Shown piece by piece: positions 2 through 21,629 of a stretch of DNA of 32,000 nucleotides. The position numbers and the translations under genes are program-made. Where the stretch lies: contig NZ_LN831039.1 in assembly GCF_001457595.1 (NCBI RefSeq), forward strand, positions 3,150,001-3,182,000. The letters run 5' to 3'. The notes under the pieces were generated by a model that did no database searches, was not told where the DNA came from, and saw nothing but the letters and a program-made list of their open reading frames with translations. The stretch's first letter is position 1; each line of letters opens with the position of its first letter. Origin of the DNA: Mycolicibacterium smegmatis (lineage in GTDB: Bacteria; Actinomycetota; Actinomycetes; Mycobacteriales; Mycobacteriaceae).

Positions 2-1006
2 GAGATCGCGTTCGCCGAGATCGCCCGACTCACCGCTACCGACGCCCCACAGCCGTGGGTCCTCGACCGCGCGCTGCGCCATCTGCTGACCGACATCACC
101 GGCAACACCCACCGCGCGGAGTTCTGCATCGACAAGCTCTACAGTCCCGACGGCGCCCGCGGCCGCCTCGGCCTGCTGGAGCTGCGCGGCTTCGAGATGC
201 CGCCGCACCACCAGATGGCGATGGTGCAGGCGCTGCTCGTCCGGTCGCTGGTGGCGTGGTTCTGGGACGAACCGCTGCGCGCCCCGCTGATCCGGCACGG
301 GGCCAACCTGCACGGCCGATACCTGCTGCCGCACTTTCTGATTCGCGACATCGCCGACGTCGCGGCGGACCTGCGTGCGCACGGCATCGACTTCTTGACC
401 AGCTGGCTCGACCCCTTCACCGAGTTTCGTTTCCCGCGGATCGGGACCGCGGTGTTCGACGGTGTCGAACTCGAACTGCGCGGCGCGATCGAACCGTGGA
501 ACGTGCTGGGGGAGGAGTCGACGGCCGGCGGCACCGCGCGTTACGTCGACTCGTCGGTCGAGCGCATCCAGGTGCGCCTCGTGGGCGCCGATCGGGACCG
601 CTACGTCGTGACGGCCAACGGCCATCCGATCCCGCTGCTTGCCACCGAGAAATCCGACGTGCAGGTGGGTGGCGTGCGGTACCGCGCGTGGCAGCCGCCC
701 AGCGCTCTGCACCCGTCGATCACCGTCGACGGCCCGCTGCGGTTCGAGCTGATCGACACGGCAACCGGCACGTCAAAGGGCGGCTGCACGTACCACATCG
801 TGCATCCGGGCGGCCGGTCCTACGACACCTCGCCGGTCAACGCGGTCGAGGCGGAATCGCGGCGCGGCCGCCGCTTCGAGGTCATCGGTTTCACGCCAGG
901 AAAAGTGGACATGTCCGTCATTCGGGAGCGGCAGGCGCGCCAGTCCACCGATGTGGGTGCACCGGGGATTCTCGATCTGCGCCGGGTGCGTACCGTTCTT
1001 CGTTGA
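2..1006 (+). CDS. Large transglutaminase-family protein, C-terminal DUF2126-like part (5' end lies upstream of the window)
   Basis: Frame 2 is open from nt 2 to TGA 1004-1006 with strong G/C third-position bias. The translation EIAFAEIARLTATDAPQPWVLDRALRHLLTDITGNTHRAEFCIDKLYSPDGARGRLGLLELRGFEMPPHHQMAM... resembles the conserved C-terminal module of ~1100-aa bacterial transglutaminase/DUF2126 proteins (from memory, no search run). The stop overlaps the next start (TGATG). Confidence 0.8.
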   Translation, partial: EIAFAEIARLTATDAPQPWVLDRALRHLLTDITGNTHRAEFCIDKLYSPDGARGRLGLLELRGFEMPPHHQMAMVQALLVRSLVAWFWDEPLRAPLIRHGANLHGRYLLPHFLIRDIADVAADLRAHGIDFLTSWLDPFTEFRFPRIGTAVFDGVELELRGAIEPWNVLGEESTAGGTARYVDSSVERIQVRLVGADRDRYVVTANGHPIPLLATEKSDVQVGGVRYRAWQPPSALHPSITVDGPLRFELIDTATGTSKGGCTYHIVHPGGRSYDTSPVNAVEAESRRGRRFEVIGFTPGKVDMSVIRERQARQSTDVGAPGILDLRRVRTVLR

Positions 1007-3720
1007 TGGTTCTACGCGCGAACGGCTCCCAGCCCACCTCGACCGCCGGCGCCGCCGGCGATCTCGGTGCGGGCTCCGACGTCTCAGGCGCCCCCGGTAT
1101 CCGGGATGTCGACGGAGTGCTCGAGAAGTACCGCCGCACCCGCCTGCAGCGGGCGCTGTTCGACGTGCGGGGTTCACAGGCCGGCACGGCCTACGACGAG
1201 TTCGTCGACACGGCGGGCGAGGTCCGCCCCGCATGGCGTGAGCTGGCCGAGTGTGTCTCCGAGCGCGGACGTTCCGGCCTCGACCGCCTGCGCGAACAGG
1301 TCAACGCCCTGGTCGACGCCGACGGCATCACCTACATCCAGGTCGACCGCCACGGTGAGATCGTCATCGACCGCGAGGGCGCCGCGATGCCGGGACCTTG
1401 GCATCTCGACGCGCTGCCGATGGTGATCTCCGCCGAAGAATGGGACGTGCTGGAGGCCGGCCTGGTGCAGCGTTCACGTCTGCTCGACGCAGTGCTGGCC
1501 GATCTGTACGGCGAGCGCCGCTCGATCACCAGTGGCGTGCTCCCGGCGCAGTTGCTGTTCTCCCATCCCGGCTATCTGCGGGCCGCCCACGGCATCACGG
1601 TGCCGGGTCGTCACCAATTGTTCCTGCACGGGTGTGACATCAGCCGCGGCGACGACGGCGCGTTCGTGGTCAACGCCGACTGGACCCAGGCCCCTTCCGG
1701 CGCCGGTTACGCACTGGCCGACCGGCGCGTCATCGCCCATGCGGTCTCGGAACTGTACGAGCGCATCGCGCCGCGGCCGGTGTCGCCATGGGCGCAGGCC
1801 CTACGCCTGGCCCTGATCGACGTCGCACCCGAATCCGCCGAGGAACCGGTGGTCGTGGTGCTGAGCCCCGGCATCCACTCGGAGACCGCGTTCGACCAGG
1901 CCTATCTGGCGGGCGTGCTCGGCTTCCCGCTGGTGGAGAGCGCCGATCTGGTGGTCCGCGACGGCAAGCTGTGGATGCGGTCGCTGGGCACCCTCAAACG
2001 TGTCGATGTGGTCCTGCGCCGCGTCGACGCGGACTACGTGGACCCACTCGACCTGCGCCCCGATTCCCGGCTGGGCGTCGTCGGGCTGGTCGAGGTGCTG
2101 CGCCGCGGTGCGGTGACGGTGGTCAACTCCCTGGGCAGCGGCGTCCTGGAAAGCCCCGGCGTGACGCGGTTCCTGCCGCAGCTGGCACAACTGCTGCTCG
2201 ACGAGACACCGCAGCTGGACACCGCGCCGCTGTACTGGGGCGGTATCGACATCGAACGCTCGCACCTGCTCACCAGGCTCGACTCGCTGCTCATCCGCCC
2301 CGTGTGCGGCGGCAAACCGATCGTGGGGCCCGAACTGTCCACCGCGCAACGCGAGGAACTGGCGGCGCGCATCGAGGCGACGCCGTGGCAGTGGGTCGGC
2401 CAGGAACTGCCGCAGTACTCCACGGCCCCGGTCGACTTCCGCAGCTCCGGACTGTCCTCGGCCGGTGTCGGTATGCGATTGTTCACCGTCGCGCAGCGCA
2501 GCGGCTATGCGCCCATGGTCGGCGGACTCGGGTATCTGATGGCGCCGGGCAACGCGGCGTTTCGCACCAACACCGTGGCCGCCAAGGACATCTGGGTACG
2601 CACACCCGATCGGGTGACGGCCGAACGCATCCAGGCCCCGGTCGAGCTGGCGACGCCGGAGACCCGGCCGAGCCCGACACGCGTGGTGAGTTCACCACGC
2701 GTGCTGGCGGACCTGTTCTGGTTGGGCCGCTACGCCGAACGTGCCGAGAGCACCGCACGGTTGCTCAACGTGACCCGCGAGCGCTACCACGAATACCGCT
2801 ACCGGCAGGCATTCGAGGAAAGCCGTTGCGTGCCGGTGCTTCTCGGTGCTCTCGGGTCCATCACGGGCACCGACACCGGAGCGCGCGACGACGATCACGA
2901 GGCCATCGCGACCGCACCCACCACGCTGTGGTCGGTGACCGCCGACCGGTACCGGCCCGGGTCGCTGGCGCAGTCGGTGGAGCGCCTCGGCCTGGCCGCC
3001 CGCGCCGTGCGCGACCAGATGTCCAATGACACCTGGATGGTCCTGGCCGGGGTCGAACGTGCCGTGCTGCGCACCAGTTCCGTTCCGCCCGACTCGCATT
3101 CGGCCGGTGAGACGTATCTTGCGAACGCGCACAGCCAGACGCTGGCGGGCATGCTCGCGCTCAGCGGTGTGGTCTCCGAATCGATGGTGCAGGACATCGG
3201 CTGGACGATGATGGACATCGGCAAACGCATCGAACGCGGGCTGCACCTCACCGCGCTGCTGCGCGCGACGCTGGCGCAGGTGCACAGCCCAGCAGCCGAA
3301 CACGCCGTCGCCGAGTCGACGCTGGTGGCGTGTGAATCCTCGGTGATCTACCGGCGTCGCAACCCGGGCCGGATCAGCGTGGCCGCCATCGCCGAACTGG
3401 TGCTGTTCGACGCCGAGAACCCCAGATCGCTGATCTACCAATTGGAGCGGCTGCGCACCAGGCTCAAGACACTGCCCGGTTCTTCGGGATCATCGCGCTC
3501 CGAGCGGCTGGTCGACGAGATCGCCACGCGGCTGCGGCGTCTGGACCCCGACGACCTGGAGACCGTGACCGACGGCATGCGCGTGGAACTCGCGGACCTG
3601 CTCGACGCCATCCACATCGGGCTGCGCGACCTGGCGACGGTCATCACGGCCGCGCATCTGTCGGTGCCCGGCGGTATGCAGCCCCTGTGGGGTCCCGACG
3701 AGCGGAGGATCCTGCCGTGA
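1006..3720 (+). CDS. Circularly permuted type-2 ATP-grasp protein fused to an alpha-E domain (putative amide/peptide ligase, function unknown)
   Basis: ATG 1006 overlaps the upstream TGA; 904 codons run to TGA 3718-3720. The N-terminal two thirds (YDEFVDTAGEVRPAWRELAE...GITYIQ...VVVLSPG...VESADLVVRDGKLWMR...VDVVLRRVD...NSLGSGVLESPG) look like the circularly permuted ATP-grasp family. The C-terminal third (VLADLFWLGRYAERAESTARLLNV..., nt ~2700-3700) is a typical alpha-E domain. The track ORF portion 55-1005 overlaps the frame-2 gene and is not counted as coding. Confidence 0.85.
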   Translation: MVLRANGSQPTSTAGAAGDLGAGSDVSGAPGIRDVDGVLEKYRRTRLQRALFDVRGSQAGTAYDEFVDTAGEVRPAWRELAECVSERGRSGLDRLREQVNALVDADGITYIQVDRHGEIVIDREGAAMPGPWHLDALPMVISAEEWDVLEAGLVQRSRLLDAVLADLYGERRSITSGVLPAQLLFSHPGYLRAAHGITVPGRHQLFLHGCDISRGDDGAFVVNADWTQAPSGAGYALADRRVIAHAVSELYERIAPRPVSPWAQALRLALIDVAPESAEEPVVVVLSPGIHSETAFDQAYLAGVLGFPLVESADLVVRDGKLWMRSLGTLKRVDVVLRRVDADYVDPLDLRPDSRLGVVGLVEVLRRGAVTVVNSLGSGVLESPGVTRFLPQLAQLLLDETPQLDTAPLYWGGIDIERSHLLTRLDSLLIRPVCGGKPIVGPELSTAQREELAARIEATPWQWVGQELPQYSTAPVDFRSSGLSSAGVGMRLFTVAQRSGYAPMVGGLGYLMAPGNAAFRTNTVAAKDIWVRTPDRVTAERIQAPVELATPETRPSPTRVVSSPRVLADLFWLGRYAERAESTARLLNVTRERYHEYRYRQAFEESRCVPVLLGALGSITGTDTGARDDDHEAIATAPTTLWSVTADRYRPGSLAQSVERLGLAARAVRDQMSNDTWMVLAGVERAVLRTSSVPPDSHSAGETYLANAHSQTLAGMLALSGVVSESMVQDIGWTMMDIGKRIERGLHLTALLRATLAQVHSPAAEHAVAESTLVACESSVIYRRRNPGRISVAAIAELVLFDAENPRSLIYQLERLRTRLKTLPGSSGSSRSERLVDEIATRLRRLDPDDLETVTDGMRVELADLLDAIHIGLRDLATVITAAHLSVPGGMQPLWGPDERRILP

Positions 3721-4637
3721 CAGACGTTTTCGGCGGCGGTGCGACGCGCCGCTACGAGATCACGCACCGGACCGTGTACCGCTACTCCGATGTCGTCACC
3801 AGCTCCTACGGGCGCGGGTTCCTCACGCCACGCGAACTCGACCGGCAGCGCTGCCTGTCACACGAACTGCTGATCGAACCGGAGGCCGCCGACAGTTCGA
3901 CGAGCCGCGACGCGTACGGCAACACCAGTTCGTACTTCCACGTGACCACGCCGCACCGAATGTTGTGCATCACGAGTCATTCGGTGGTCGAGGTGGATCC
4001 GCCCGCACCCGACCACTACACGTGCCGCTCGGCGAAGGCGCCGTGGGAACTCGCGCGCCCGGTCGGTGGTGAGGCCGCCCTGGCCGCGGAGTTCACGCTC
4101 GACCTGCAGCCGCCGGAGATCACCGACGCGGTCCGCGAGTACGCGGCCCCCAGCTTCGAGCCGGGCCGCCCGCTCATGGAGGTGTTGCGGGATCTCACGT
4201 CCCGCATCTACACCGACTTCACCTACCGGTCCGGTTCGACGACGATTTCCACCCAGGTCGCCGAGGTGCTCGCGGCGCGCGAGGGGGTCTGTCAGGATTT
4301 CGCGCGCCTGGCGATTGCGTGCCTGCGCGCCAACGGACTTGCCGCGAGTTACGTGTCGGGGTACCTGGCCACGGATCCGCCGCCGGGGCGCGAGCGCATG
4401 GTCGGTGTCGACGCCACCCACGCCTGGGCGTCGGTGTGGACACCCCAGAACATCTGGCTCGGTCTGGACCCCACCAACGACCAGATGGTCGACGAGCGGT
4501 ACATCGTCGCGGGCTTCGGCCGCGACTACGCCGACGTGCCACCGTTGCGGGGCATCATCTACACCGACTCGGAGAGTAGTGTCATCGAGGTATCAGTCGA
4601 CGTGGCACCGTACGAGGGGGATTTGCTGCATGCGTGA
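3717..4637 (+). CDS. Transglutaminase-like cysteine peptidase family protein (Bact_transglu_N + transglutaminase core)
   Basis: GTG 3717 overlaps the upstream stop (GTGA) and has GGAGGA at 3704-3709, 7 nt upstream. GTG 3687 is the alternative start. N-terminus RRYEITHRTVYRYSDVV is typical of Bact_transglu_N. The core triad context is visible: GVCQDFA (Cys codon 4290-4292), DATHAWASVW, LGLDPTN. Confidence 0.88.
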   Translation: MTDVFGGGATRRYEITHRTVYRYSDVVTSSYGRGFLTPRELDRQRCLSHELLIEPEAADSSTSRDAYGNTSSYFHVTTPHRMLCITSHSVVEVDPPAPDHYTCRSAKAPWELARPVGGEAALAAEFTLDLQPPEITDAVREYAAPSFEPGRPLMEVLRDLTSRIYTDFTYRSGSTTISTQVAEVLAAREGVCQDFARLAIACLRANGLAASYVSGYLATDPPPGRERMVGVDATHAWASVWTPQNIWLGLDPTNDQMVDERYIVAGFGRDYADVPPLRGIIYTDSESSVIEVSVDVAPYEGDLLHA

Positions 4638-5658
4638 CTTCACGTGCCCGAACTGCGGTCAGAGGCTGGCGTTCGAGAACTCGCTGTGCCTGTCGTGCGG
4701 CAGTGCGCTGGGGTTCTCGCTGTGCGACATGGCGCTGCTGGTGATCACCGAGAAGGACCAGAGTGACCACGCGGGCGCGGTCGACGAACAGAAGTACAAA
4801 CTGTGCGCCAACCTTTATGCCGCCGAATGCAACTGGCTGGTCCGCGTCGGCGAGGGCGACGAGTTGTGCGAATCCTGCGCGCTCACCCGCACCCGGCCGG
4901 CCGACAGCGACACCAAGGCCATGGCCGCGTTCGCGGGTGCCGAGCGCGCCAAGCGCCGCCTGATCGTCGAACTGCACGAGCTCAGACTGCCGATCGTGAG
5001 CCGTGCGGAGGATCCCGAGTACGGGCTCGCGTTCGACCTGCTCTCGAGCGAGTTCGACAAGGTGTTCACCGGTCACGAGAACGGTGTCATCACACTGGAT
5101 CTCGCCGAGGGTGACGACGTGCACCGCGAACAGTTGCGCATCGCGATGGACGAGCCCTACCGCACGCTGCTGGGCCACTTCCGCCACGAGATCGGGCACT
5201 ACTACTTCTACCGCCTGGTGGCGCCGTCGGCCGAGTTCACTGCGAAGTTCAACGAACTGTTCGGTGATCCCGACGCCGACTACCAGGCCGCCCTGGACCG
5301 CCACTATCAGGACGGGCCACCTGCGGGCTGGGAGGACGACTTCGTGTCGTCGTACGCCACCATGCACGCCGCCGAGGACTGGGCCGAGACCTTCGCGCAC
5401 TACCTGCACATCCGCGACACACTCGACACCGCCGCGGCATTCGGATTCGCCCCGGCCGGAGCAACTTTCGACCGCCGCGCCCTCGGCCCCAGCGCGTTCG
5501 ACACCATCATCGAGATGTGGCTGCCCCTGGCGTGGTCACTGAACATGGTCAACCGGTCGATGGGCCACGACGACCTGTACCCGTTCGTGCTGCCGCCCGC
5601 CGTGCTGGAGAAGATGCGGTTCGTGCACACCGTGATCGACGAGGTGACCTCGGCCTGA
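4630..5658 (+). CDS. Zinc-ribbon domain plus putative zinc metallopeptidase (HExxH)
   Basis: ATG 4630 lies 8 nt inside the upstream gene, with GAGGGGG at 4614-4620. 342 codons to TGA 5656-5658. N-terminal CPNCG-x10-CLSCG zinc ribbon and a second Cys cluster (C-x7-C ... CESC). HEIGH motif at nt 5185-5199. No signal peptide visible. Confidence 0.85.
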   Translation: MRDFTCPNCGQRLAFENSLCLSCGSALGFSLCDMALLVITEKDQSDHAGAVDEQKYKLCANLYAAECNWLVRVGEGDELCESCALTRTRPADSDTKAMAAFAGAERAKRRLIVELHELRLPIVSRAEDPEYGLAFDLLSSEFDKVFTGHENGVITLDLAEGDDVHREQLRIAMDEPYRTLLGHFRHEIGHYYFYRLVAPSAEFTAKFNELFGDPDADYQAALDRHYQDGPPAGWEDDFVSSYATMHAAEDWAETFAHYLHIRDTLDTAAAFGFAPAGATFDRRALGPSAFDTIIEMWLPLAWSLNMVNRSMGHDDLYPFVLPPAVLEKMRFVHTVIDEVTSA

Positions 5659-5676
5659 CGGGTTCGCCCGCTCTCC

Positions 5677-5733
5677 CGAGCGTCGGCTTGTGTGCGAACT
5701 TTTCGGGATATCTCGCACACAAGCCGACGCTCG
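5677..5733 (+). terminator. 21-bp perfect inverted repeat (stem 5677-5697 / 5713-5733, 15-nt loop), probable factor-independent terminator of the upstream operon
   Basis: cgagcgtcggcttgtgtgcga ... tcgcacacaagccgacgctcg was paired base by base with no mismatch. It starts 19 nt after the stop at 5658. No downstream T-tract, as is common for mycobacterial I-shaped terminators. Confidence 0.6.
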
Positions 5734-5838: not shown

Positions 5839-6672
5839 GTGACAGATCGCTACGGTTCTGACGTCCTGGCCCGAAACCCGCACGCCCCGAAACGTGCCCG
5901 GTCCACCGAACACCCCGTCGAGATGGGCCTGGTCGTCGAGGACGCCCAGACCGGCTGGGTGGGCGCGGTGGTCCGCGTCGAGGGCGGCCGGGTCGAGTTG
6001 GAGGACCGCCGCGGCAAAATCCGGGCGTTCCCGATGGGCCCGGGGTTTCTCATCGACGGCAAGCCTGTGATCCTCACCGCACCGAAACGCCAAGCGGCGC
6101 CTGCGCGCACGGCGTCGGGTTCGGTCGCGGTGCCCGGCGCCAAGGCCAGGGTCGCACGCGCCAGCCGGATCTACGTCGAGGGCAGGCACGACGCCGAACT
6201 GGTCGAGCAGGTGTGGGGCGCCGATCTGCGCATCGAGGGCGTGGTCGTCGAATACCTCGGCGGTGTCGACGACCTGGCCGACATCGTCGCGGAGTTCGCC
6301 CCGGAACCGGGCCGGCGCCTCGGCGTGCTCGTCGACCATCTGGTTGCGGGTTCGAAGGAGGCGCGGATCGCCGACGCCGTGCGCCGCGGGCCCGGTGGTG
6401 AACACACACTCGTGGTGGGGCACCCCTTCGTCGACATCTGGCAGGCCGTCAAACCGGCCCGCCTCGGCATGAAGACCTGGCCCCAGATCCCGCGCAACAT
6501 CGAGTGGAAGCACGGCATCTGCCAGGCACTCGGCTGGCCCCACCGCGACCAGGCCGACATCGCGCAGGCGTGGCAACGGATCCGGGGCCGCGTGCGTGAC
6601 TGGAACGATCTGGAGCCTGCACTGATCGGCCGCGTGGAGGAGCTCATCGACTTCGTCACCGAACCTGCCTAG
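5839..6672 (+). CDS. DUF3097-like conserved actinobacterial protein (function unknown)
   Basis: Open frame to TAG 6670-6672 with high GC3. The track start ATG 5803 has no SD or -10. In-frame GTG 5839 has TAGGAT 7 nt upstream (AGGA within it could alternatively act as an SD). Family assignment is from memory of the conserved gene next to rarA in actinobacteria. Start uncertain (5803 or 5839). Confidence 0.75.
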
Positions 6673-6710: not shown

Positions 6711-8054
6711 GTGTCCGACAGCTTGTTCGATGTTCCCGGCGGCGGCGCAGAGCCCGGGGACGCCATCGCGGCAACCGGTGCGGTGGGCCCCTCGTCGCCC
6801 CTGGCGGTGCGGATGCGCCCGGCCGGCCTCGACGAGGTGGTCGGGCAGTCGCATCTGCTGCAGGCGGGGTCGCCGCTTCGCAGGCTCGTGGAGGGCTCCG
6901 GCGCGGCGTCGGTGATCCTGTACGGCCCGCCGGGAACGGGAAAGACGACGCTGGCGTCGCTCATATCGCAGGCGACCGGCAGGCGCTTCGAGGCGCTCTC
7001 GGCGCTCACCGCGGGGGTCAAAGAGGTGCGCGCGGTCATCGACACCGCGCGCCGGGCAGCCGTGCACGGCCAGCAGACCGTGTTGTTCATCGACGAGGTG
7101 CACCGGTTCTCCAAGACCCAGCAGGACGCCCTGCTGGCGGCGGTCGAGAACCGCGTGGTGCTGCTCGTCGCGGCCACCACGGAGAACCCGTCGTTCTCGG
7201 TGGTGGCGCCGCTGCTGTCGCGATCGCTGATCCTGCAGCTGCAGCCGCTCACCCCGGCCGACATCGAGGCCGTGCTGCGCCGTGCGATCACCGATGAACG
7301 CGGCCTCGGCGGCCGGGTCGAGGTGACCGACGAGGCCGTCGACCTCATCGTGCAACTGTCCGCCGGCGACGCGCGACGCGCGCTCACAGCGCTCGAGGTC
7401 GCGGCCGAGCCGGGGGAGCGGGTCACGGTCGAGACCATCGAACAGTCGCTGGACAAGGCCGCGGTGCGCTACGACCGCGACGGCGATCAGCACTACGACG
7501 TCGTCAGTGCGTTCATCAAATCGGTGCGCGGATCCGATGTCGACGCCGCGCTGCACTACCTGGCACGCATGCTCGTCGCGGGCGAGGATCCGCGATTTGT
7601 GGCGCGCCGCTTGATGATCCTGGCCAGCGAGGACATCGGGATGGCCGATCCGACGGCGCTGCAGACCGCGGTGGCCGCCGCGCAGACCGTGCAGCTGATC
7701 GGGATGCCCGAGGCGCAGCTGACCCTGGCGCATGCCACCGTCCATCTGGCGACGGCACCGAAATCCAACGCCGTGACCACCGCACTGGGCGCTGCGATGA
7801 ACGACATCCGCGCCGGGAAGGCCGGTCTGGTCCCGCCACACCTGCGCGACGGGCACTACTCGGGGGCCGCCAAACTCGGCCACGCCGTCGGCTACCGGTA
7901 CTCCCACGATCACCCGGACGGCGTTGTGGCCCAGCAGTATCCGCCAGACGAACTGGTGGGTGTCGACTACTACCAGCCCACCGGCCGTGGGTACGAACGC
8001 GAGATCTCCACACGGCTGGAGAAGCTGCGCGCCATCATCCGCAGGCGACGCTGA
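6711..8054 (+). CDS. rarA: Replication-associated recombination protein A (AAA+ ATPase RarA/MgsA)
   Basis: [11 protein letters not shown]...[20 protein letters not shown]...[14 protein letters not shown] (Walker A)...LFIDEVHRF (Walker B) plus the C-terminal MgsA domain. Close to my recollection of the M. tuberculosis orthologue. Confidence 0.95.
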
Positions 8055-8092: not shown

Positions 8093-8126
8093 ACGGTCCC
8101 GGCCCGCCGAGGCGAGCCGGGACCGT
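8093..8126. terminator. 11-bp perfect GC-rich hairpin between convergent rarA and the YeaQ-family gene
   Basis: acggtcccggc (8093-8103) pairs with gccgggaccgt (8116-8126) around a 12-nt loop. It lies in the 94-nt convergent intergenic region. No T-tract. Confidence 0.5.
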
Positions 8127-16905: not shown

Positions 16906-18723
<1,818 letters not shown>

Positions 18724-21587: not shown

Positions 21588-21629
21588 ACCGTTGTGCCGC
21601 AAGGAAGCGATTGCGGCACAACGGTTTTT
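21588..21629 (+). terminator. Canonical intrinsic terminator after nusB (15-bp stem, 8-nt loop, T5 tail)
   Basis: accgttgtgccgcaa (21588-21602) pairs perfectly with ttgcggcacaacggt (21611-21625), followed by tttt. Confidence 0.85.

Follow-up and report, generated by a model that had tools for sequence, protein, structure and literature searches.

The 32,000-nucleotide window analyzed here (the whole stretch, positions 3,150,001 to 3,182,000 of contig NZ_LN831039.1 from Mycolicibacterium smegmatis, forward strand) opens on a cluster of four plus-strand genes, which we call A, B, C and D. The genes occupy positions 2-5658 and are linked through the start/stop overlaps that an earlier note on this DNA had described and that can be read directly in the sequence. 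Its predicted domain content takes in two ligases, two thiol domains of the transglutaminase-like kind and a single zinc hydrolase, and the cluster represents an extended version of the permuted ATP-grasp/Alpha-E/transglutaminase-like amidoligase system, which is already known as an in silico prediction. The features of the locus, all on the plus strand, are as follows.

2..1006, plus strand: last 334 codons (C-terminal part) of gene A, taken to be MSMEG_3016; orthologue of Rv2566
1004-1008, plus strand: A/B junction TGATG, in which the stop codon of A and the ATG of B share one base
1006..3720, plus strand: gene B, 904 amino acids, a circularly permuted ATP-grasp ligase fused to Alpha-E; MSMEG_3017 (A0QWP7); orthologue of Rv2567
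1417..2532, plus strand: ATP-grasp domain of B, residues 138-509 (CP_ATPgrasp_2, 1.7e-127, model positions 1-371 of 374)
2695..3657, plus strand: Alpha-E domain of B, residues 564-884 (Pfam Alpha-E, 1.6e-67), with GRYAERAE at 2725-2748
3717-3720, plus strand: B/C junction GTGA, a 4-nt overlap of the GTG start of C and the stop of B, with GGAGGA at 3704-3709
3717..4637, plus strand: gene C, 306 amino acids, a transglutaminase-like thiol enzyme; MSMEG_3018; orthologue of Rv2569c
4630-4637, plus strand: C/D junction ATGCGTGA, an 8-nt overlap holding the ATG of D and the stop of C, with GAGGGGG at 4614-4620
4630..5658, plus strand: gene D, 342 amino acids, a double zinc ribbon followed by an HExxH Peptidase_Mx domain; taken to be MSMEG_3019; orthologue of Rv2568c
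5677..5733, plus strand: 21-bp perfect inverted repeat with a 15-nt loop (arms 5677-5697 and 5713-5733), starting 19 nt past the stop of D

All four genes are represented in the window, as the earlier note had it, but A is present there only through its last 334 codons. The full gene A encodes 1102 amino acids and starts 2303 nt before window position 1 (L001:3069, where L001 is the same locus fetched from public assemblies and a window position equals the L001 position minus 5371); its transglutaminase part lies about 2.3 kb upstream of the window and is seen only in L001. Exact-sequence protein look-ups lead to M. smegmatis, in a strain other than mc2 155, with B as A0QWP7. The source product names of B and C equal those of a published table (MSMEG_3017, “uncharacterized protein,” and MSMEG_3018, “Transglutaminase domain protein”), and A to D were therefore taken as MSMEG_3016 to MSMEG_3019, the outer two tags resting on consecutive numbering and matching product names. 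Downstream of the cluster in L001 lie a DUF3097 gene, rarA, alaS, ruvX, mltG and aroE, an order which we take to be that of the Mycobacterium tuberculosis Rv2552c-Rv2569c region, and the cluster is therefore the orthologue of Rv2566, Rv2567, Rv2569c and Rv2568c. The M. tuberculosis set Rv2566-Rv2567/Rv2568c-Rv2569c encodes the same four proteins with the same domain architectures.

Profile hidden Markov model searches against Pfam supported the domain calls for all four proteins, and the catalytic signatures described earlier as intact (GRYAERAE, the Cys/His/Asp context and HEIGH) proved invariant across the 45-81 homologues, drawn from up to 80 related loci, in which motif conservation was assessed; the four calls and their motifs are all confirmed. 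In B, CP_ATPgrasp_1 also matches the ligase region (residues 138-509), all 45 sequences compared share the R, E, R and E of GRYAERAE (100% conservation), and ATP-grasp and Alpha-E are fused in each of the 52/52 loci that show both. PDB entry 3n6x, matched by the ATP-grasp part at 9.4e-64, was deposited as a “putative glutathionylspermidine synthase,” which is the depositor's annotation only. B is a predicted ATP-dependent amide-bond ligase, for which the only related data come from a Yersinia ATP-grasp homologue that frees phosphate from ATP (PMC6376114). A role for Rv2567 as a maker of gamma-aminobutyric acid (GABA)-trehalose was not borne out in work by others, who tested Rv2567 and Rv2411c as GABA-trehalose synthetases with negative results; Rv2409c-Rv2411c is presumably a second related cluster in M. 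tuberculosis.

Gene C carries Pfam matches to Bact_transglu_N and Transglut_core, a Cys192-His235-Asp251 triad invariant in 57 sequences (the Cys192 codon being at 4290-4292), and a match to PDB entry 3isr at 1.5e-8. Gene D matches Zn_ribbon_DZR_6 and Peptidase_Mx (PF10005 with PF15887) at 4.4e-102, with HEIGH at 5185-5199. Two alignments agree on the invariance of C6, C9, C20, C23, C59, C67, C80, C83, H186, E187, H190, H246, D250, E253 and H257; the eight cysteines form the four CxxC-type pairs expected of the Peptidase_Mx zinc-ribbon family, and the signature conserved in homologues from the related loci is HExxH plus E249, D250, E253 and H257. An AlphaFold model of D reached a predicted local distance difference test (pLDDT) score of 86.9, its top solved match being anthrax lethal factor at a non-significant E = 0.14, and a profile search placed 3208 clusters at 50% identity in the D family (E <= 1e-3). 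Two longer homologues, P0152 (648 amino acids) and P0207 (523 amino acids), are fusions to an N-terminal tandem PAS or a C-terminal response-regulator receiver, a hint that signals can control zinc-enzyme activity. The longer D homologues otherwise carry unannotated extensions, and no C::D Rosetta-stone fusion was found among them.

In full-length A, Bact_transglu_N and Transglut_core match at residues 6-254 and DUF2126 at 285-1095 (E = 0), the fragment inside the window giving a DUF2126 match of 1.9e-152. The triad Cys188, His237 and Asp253 is invariant across homologues, and the transglutaminase part is fused to DUF2126 in 38/39 loci. Pfam labels DUF2126 a putative amidoligase, and Iyer et al. 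(2008) described Rv2566 as an N-terminal transglutaminase-like domain joined to a C-terminal carboxylate-amine ligase domain related to PafA, to GCS2 and to gamma-glutamylcysteine ligases, with no Pup-like small open reading frame (ORF) nearby. On this label and this description, the DUF2126 part of A is a putative amidoligase of the glutamine-synthetase type, and the cluster would accordingly hold two ligases; the tally of one ligase plus two hydrolases offered in the earlier note does not survive. PDB searches found no solved structures for the ligase part of A, Alpha-E or D, and only the distant relatives 3n6x and 3isr for the ligase of B and for C.

The N-termini of all four proteins look, by eye only, unlike signal peptides or membrane segments. 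Rfam and tRNA searches gave no match in the window or in L001, and no called gene lies within the flanking intergenic regions of about 175 and 180 nt. An anti-phage defense role was considered and dropped, as none of the four proteins matched any family among the PADLOC defense-system models.

Whether the four genes belong together was addressed by fetching 80 genome loci that encode a D homologue and mapping A, B, C and D in them by tblastn. The colinear order A>B>C>D was found in 38/80 loci, from the Mycobacterium/Mycolicibacterium spp. that make up the colinear block, from Mycobacteroides, Nocardia, Microbacterium, Nocardioides and Aeromicrobium, and from several metagenome-assembled genomes (MAGs). 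A second layout, C>D followed by inverted B<A, accounts for 12/80 loci, and those with species names are slow-growing mycobacteria (M. scrofulaceum, M. szulgai and M. colombiense among them); for M. tuberculosis as well, the opposite strand implied by the names Rv2568c and Rv2569c points to this convergent layout. The recurrence of the four-gene set in Actinomycetota, which the earlier note had proposed as a check, is borne out. C>D occurs on short contigs at two loci, the genes are linked in other orders at four (including direct A>D adjacency in Acidimicrobiia), and D stands alone at 24 (Rhodococcus, Gordonia, Solirubrobacteraceae and others), where ORF calling and all-against-all BLAST revealed no conserved neighbors of D. 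In Hymenobacter, D is divergent beside separate ATP-grasp, Alpha-E and transglutaminase genes and there is no A.

The junctions are conserved along with the gene content. The A/B junction measures -1 nt in most mycobacterial loci of both layouts, the B/C junction -4 nt in colinear loci out to Nocardia and Nocardioides, and the C/D junction -8 nt in nearly all measurable loci of the mycobacterial block (L005-L036 and L038, with the exception of L006), again in both layouts; in Nocardia and Microbacterium the C/D spacing is +3 to +8 nt. Short gene overlaps are common in GC-rich operons, and the conservation of the overlaps across species is stronger evidence for a unit than the overlaps themselves. 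In the window the four genes are colinear and B overlaps C, whereas the 12 convergent loci keep the A/B and C/D overlaps but have A-B turned around to face C-D. From the recurrent gene set and the conserved junctions, the four genes appear to be functionally linked, as two separable pairs, A-B and C-D; given the convergent pairs, the system does not need all four genes on one transcript. The earlier picture of one translationally coupled operon finds support in junctions that are conserved across species, but it does not apply to the loci split into convergent pairs and sits poorly with the uneven induction described below.

Several individual loci depart from these patterns. On a 1-Mb metagenome contig (L091), fused B>C>D is accompanied by a convergent A, and C and D overlap by 4 nt. 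We take this contig, unchecked, to be from Bacteroidota, on the sole ground that its D is similar to a protein named Puia sp.; A itself is called there as three fragments of 584, 79 and 406 amino acids (L091:10440-13760), probably through frameshifts in a long-read assembly or because the gene is decaying. A colinear A>B>C>D cluster on a contig labeled Burkholderia sp. PAMC 26561 MAG (L058) shares 44-54% identity with its mycobacterial counterpart, and an in-frame stop interrupts A; horizontal transfer, mis-binning, a pseudogene or sequencing error are possible explanations. Among the Acidimicrobiia, one locus (L061:415-9806) carries a second, divergent ATP-grasp::Alpha-E copy (25-32% identity) between an A-B-C cluster and D, and in two others (L077 and L082) D directly follows A, with B and C elsewhere. 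A predicted metagenomic protein of 563 amino acids (P0386) joins the C-terminus of DUF2126 to the N-terminus of CP_ATPgrasp, equivalent to an A::B read-through product; a single-base change at the shared-base junction may have created it, and it may equally be an assembly error.

The earlier note had linked the cluster to the ATP-grasp/Alpha-E/transglutaminase prediction of the Aravind group, and this link holds. The features of that system are present in the window: a permuted ATP-grasp, a fused Alpha-E with its ER motif, the adjacent Cys-His-Asp transglutaminase-like C, and induction on nitrogen limitation, as seen in published M. smegmatis arrays and in proteobacterial data. The frequent, though not universal, fourth gene of the system, the proteasome-like Anbu, is missing, and the fourth gene here is the zinc-ribbon Peptidase_Mx. 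Anbu-type operons of proteobacteria and cyanobacteria likewise consist of permuted ATP-grasp, Alpha-E and transglutaminase-like genes followed by a peptidase gene (PMC5666114; PMC6376114), and they too respond to nitrogen limitation; the window cluster differs in having D in the Anbu slot, in the fusion of ATP-grasp to Alpha-E, and in the large additional A, which would add a second ligase. D is thus a recurrent partner and appears to substitute for the Anbu of the proteobacterial versions. As relayed in the Anbu papers, Iyer et al. (2009) proposed a system for making peptides, where Anbu serves as peptidase, possibly one for protein tagging in which Anbu acts in a deubiquitinase-like manner (PMC5666114; PMC6376114). 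Those papers report no confirmation of the prediction: Anbu showed no detectable peptidase activity and formed no stable complex with its operon partners (PMC6376114).

Expression data tie the cluster to nitrogen. In published arrays at nitrogen run-out MSMEG_3016 was 12.7-fold up at 12 h and 11.0-fold up in a second up-regulated list, ranking among the classic nitrogen-scavenging genes (PMC3706326); MSMEG_3017 was 2.06-fold and 2.12-fold up and MSMEG_3018 2.11-fold up on nitrogen limitation (PMC3706326, additional file 2). A 2.8-fold difference in MSMEG_3016 between wild type and a glnR mutant has been reported (PMC3662644, Table S1), and since the gene is absent from the GlnR regulon and binding-site tables the effect of GlnR looks partial and indirect. 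The cluster genes are not listed in the supplements of Petridis (2015) and Jessberger (2013), nothing on MSMEG_3014-3019 was found in the main texts of the literature searched, and a literature search on the Pfam accessions gave nothing informative. Comparable clusters elsewhere behave similarly: Burkholderia cenocepacia I35_5080-83 (BCAM1233-1236), which contains ATP-grasp, Alpha-E and transglutaminase proteins and a “large transglutaminase-domain protein,” depends strongly on nitrogen limitation and on NtrC and sigma-54 (PMC5491218), and the Pseudomonas putida Anbu gene PP_2685 and ATP-grasp gene PP_2688 were induced on nitrate relative to ammonium. The Burkholderia cluster differs from the window in having separate ATP-grasp and Alpha-E genes, no listed D-type peptidase, and NtrC with sigma-54 as its regulator. 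By comparison of these data sets, nitrogen limitation is a cue common to such clusters across phyla.

We propose, with moderate confidence, that the cluster makes amide bonds at the expense of ATP and breaks them with thiol- and zinc-dependent enzymes in the service of nitrogen economy. In this scheme the two ligases, A and B, would spend ATP to form gamma-glutamyl- or peptide-type amide bonds on an acceptor, the thiol enzymes together with the zinc enzyme D would transfer or hydrolyze those bonds, and the pathway would serve nitrogen capture or recycling during nitrogen starvation. As to the acceptor, we lean, tentatively and short of an even chance, towards a small molecule or short peptide; we favor a protein tag of the Pup type less and regard it as doubtful. 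This leaning has four grounds: 3n6x, the closest solved relative of the ligase of B, was named a putative glutathionylspermidine synthase, the ligase of A has been tied to GCS2 and gamma-glutamylcysteine ligases (Iyer et al., 2008), the genes overlap and leave no room for a tag gene (nor is there a Pup-like ORF nearby), and the co-regulated genes are those of metabolic scavenging. In the glutathionylspermidine synthetase/amidase of Escherichia coli, an ATP-dependent ligase of permuted ATP-grasp type is paired with a thiol amidase that is papain-like, so that one small-molecule amide is both made and broken; its thiol domain is of the CHAP type, whereas that of the window is transglutaminase-like, and glutathione and spermidine are not implicated here.

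Several observations weigh against this proposal. The transglutaminase-like folds, the two zinc ribbons and the association with Anbu point more towards protein substrates, and no substrate, product or phenotype is on record for any member of the system. For the ligase of A, a 15-sequence DUF2126 profile found no match among PDB sequences at E <= 10, hhalign of DUF2126 against E. coli YbdK returned a probability of 0.05, and a model of a 571-amino-acid fragment of A, built on a shallow alignment, reached a pLDDT of 57.8 and had only immunoglobulin-like domains as Foldseek matches. D occurs without A, B and C in 24/80 loci, and among seven D homologues sampled from the profile search outside that set it is solitary in five (from Gammaproteobacteria and Alphaproteobacteria, Cerasicoccus and a Caldilineaceae MAG); D is thus often, but not necessarily, tied to the system. 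The co-expression anticipated by the earlier note is seen for A, B and C, all of which go up, but very unevenly, at 12.7-fold for A against about 2.1-fold for B and C, and MSMEG_3019 (D) is not in the induced-gene list (PMC3706326), the assignment of A and D to these tags following tag order and product names rather than coordinates. Such unevenness suggests polarity, internal promoters or probe effects and not a simple equal operon, and within the M. smegmatis cluster it argues for internal promoters or polarity.

The alternative that fares best is the one the earlier note had in mind, a write/erase cycle in which the ligases build a peptide or amino-acid tag on proteins and C and D remove or process it, perhaps feeding regulated proteolysis and amino-acid recycling in nitrogen starvation in parallel to Pup. 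We regard it as possible, if doubtful. The tagging suggestion of Iyer et al. (2009), as the Anbu papers convey it, is in its favor, as are the position of D, a peptidase with two zinc ribbons, in the Anbu slot, the invariance of the papain-like Cys-His-Asp triads, and induction by nitrogen limitation, the same stress in which the Pup-proteasome system matters for M. smegmatis. Both pupylation and the window cluster are mycobacterial, cytosolic and tied to nitrogen starvation, and PafA belongs to the same ligase superfamily as the ligase of A (Iyer et al., 2008). The parallel drawn with pupylation nevertheless breaks down at the components: the window cluster has no tag gene, and no space for one between its overlapping genes, no Pup-like ORF (Iyer et al., 2008), no homologous ligase/deamidase pair of the PafA/Dop kind, and hydrolases that are transglutaminase-like and zinc-dependent. 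Linkage to Mpa or the proteasome is likewise lacking: the 10 kb to each side of the cluster in L001 contain no proteasome-like gene, and rarA is the sole AAA-family gene in a neighborhood with no AAA unfoldase. The inactivity of Anbu and its failure to form stable complexes (PMC6376114) also count against tagging, and a modified protein has never been reported. A narrower version, which we consider unlikely, is a second, Pup-independent protein-marking pathway of mycobacteria, induced by nitrogen starvation, in which A and B would mark proteins and C and D would process or erase the mark, feeding amino-acid recycling; the mark may be a peptide or gamma-glutamyl, and D may have displaced the Anbu of other phyla. 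Overall, the observations of the earlier note are confirmed and its interpretation is partly supported.

A nitrogen-rich storage polymer resembling cyanophycin, with the two ligase sites building a branched poly-amide that the thiol and zinc peptidases mobilize, is very unlikely. Two ligases of different folds do occur together with two kinds of peptidase, cyanophycin synthetase likewise pairs an ATP-grasp site with a second ligase site, and expression tracks nitrogen status. Yet the ligases are induced under nitrogen scarcity, the wrong time for storing, Pfam and PDB searches showed no similarity to cyanophycin synthetase or cyanophycinase, and to our knowledge no polymer of this sort has been reported from mycobacteria.

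A claim in the literature concerns C by itself. The earlier note knew of no substrate or product shown for the mycobacterial versions, and the literature searched assigns the orthologues no defined biochemical pathway; a published study does, however, present Rv2569c as an E-cadherin-cleaving “serine protease,” drawing on inhibitor profiles in which AEBSF and PMSF blocked the activity and E-64 and NEM were without effect (PMC11081392). Its authors note that the conserved domains of Rv2569c predict a cysteine protease, and the words “catalytic” and “triad” are absent from their text. The assignment is mechanistically weak and unproven, and it is at odds with a transglutaminase-like fold whose Cys-His-Asp triad is invariant. 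That C should be a secreted broad-range protease unrelated to its neighbors is, despite the inhibition by AEBSF and PMSF, highly improbable: E-64 and NEM would not be expected to leave an enzyme of this fold and triad unaffected, a contaminating serine protease would account for the inhibitor profile, the N-terminus of C (MTDVFGGG...) is, by eye only, unlike a signal peptide, and C is kept in a saprophyte and overlap-coupled to B and D across phyla. Chance or genome compaction as the reason that four genes with no joint work adjoin is close to refuted, since, for all that D is alone and without conserved neighbors in many genomes, the gene set recurs in at least four arrangements, mostly in Actinomycetota but also in the contig we take, unchecked, as Bacteroidota and in the one labeled Burkholderia, with its overlapping junctions conserved.

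Clusters of ATP-grasp, Alpha-E and transglutaminase genes, with or without Anbu, are widespread in bacteria, and the question of what they do dates from 2008-2009; the window does not present a new kind of system, as the cluster is annotated in public databases and was predicted in silico earlier. What M. smegmatis offers is a genetically tractable copy with a known inducer, A being 12.7-fold up when nitrogen runs out, and a sharper form of the question: two putative ligases instead of one, a recurrent D as apparent substitute for Anbu, and A-B and C-D as separable pairs. A product, if found, would represent a new nitrogen-starvation amide metabolite or else a new protein modification in bacteria, and would put the disputed protease claim for Rv2569c in context.

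The inverted repeat downstream of D is as perfect as the earlier note had reported, its 21-bp arms being 100% complementary around the 15-nt loop, and it is the longest perfect inverted repeat in the window, with no second copy of its sequence there. As RNA the region folds at -56 kcal/mol (z = -6.3 against shuffles). The further claim that the unit ends at this hairpin is weakened by several observations. Mycobacterial RNA polymerase requires a U-tract at intrinsic terminators (PMC3993855), and the GC-rich hairpin at 5677-5733 is not directly followed by one: the tail reads ATGTGAGCTG, and a terminator scan gave no call. The hairpin is also absent from the 80 related loci, in which long stems after D are sporadic and of unrelated sequence (25 bp in L016, 18 bp in L066 and 14 bp in L080), and long hairpins seem to arise independently at this position. 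It is more likely a species-specific structure at the 3' end of a transcript than a defining part of the system. The 25-bp stem of L016 (Mycobacterium sp. TY814, L016:11044-11110) is itself a perfect hairpin with a 4-nt loop, starting 9 nt past the stop of D.

Just 3' of the M. smegmatis hairpin, the DUF3097 gene (window 5839-6669), which by tag order would be MSMEG_3020, was 2.48-fold up on nitrogen limitation, a level near that of B and C, which fits read-through across the hairpin without proving it. Other long inverted repeats of the window lie at 8093-8126 (16 nt, 94% complementary, 39 nt past the rarA stop at 8054), 18697-18723 (13 nt, perfect) and 21588-21625 (15 nt, perfect). These three have no obvious T run, and hairpins lacking a U-tract may be commonplace in this genome.

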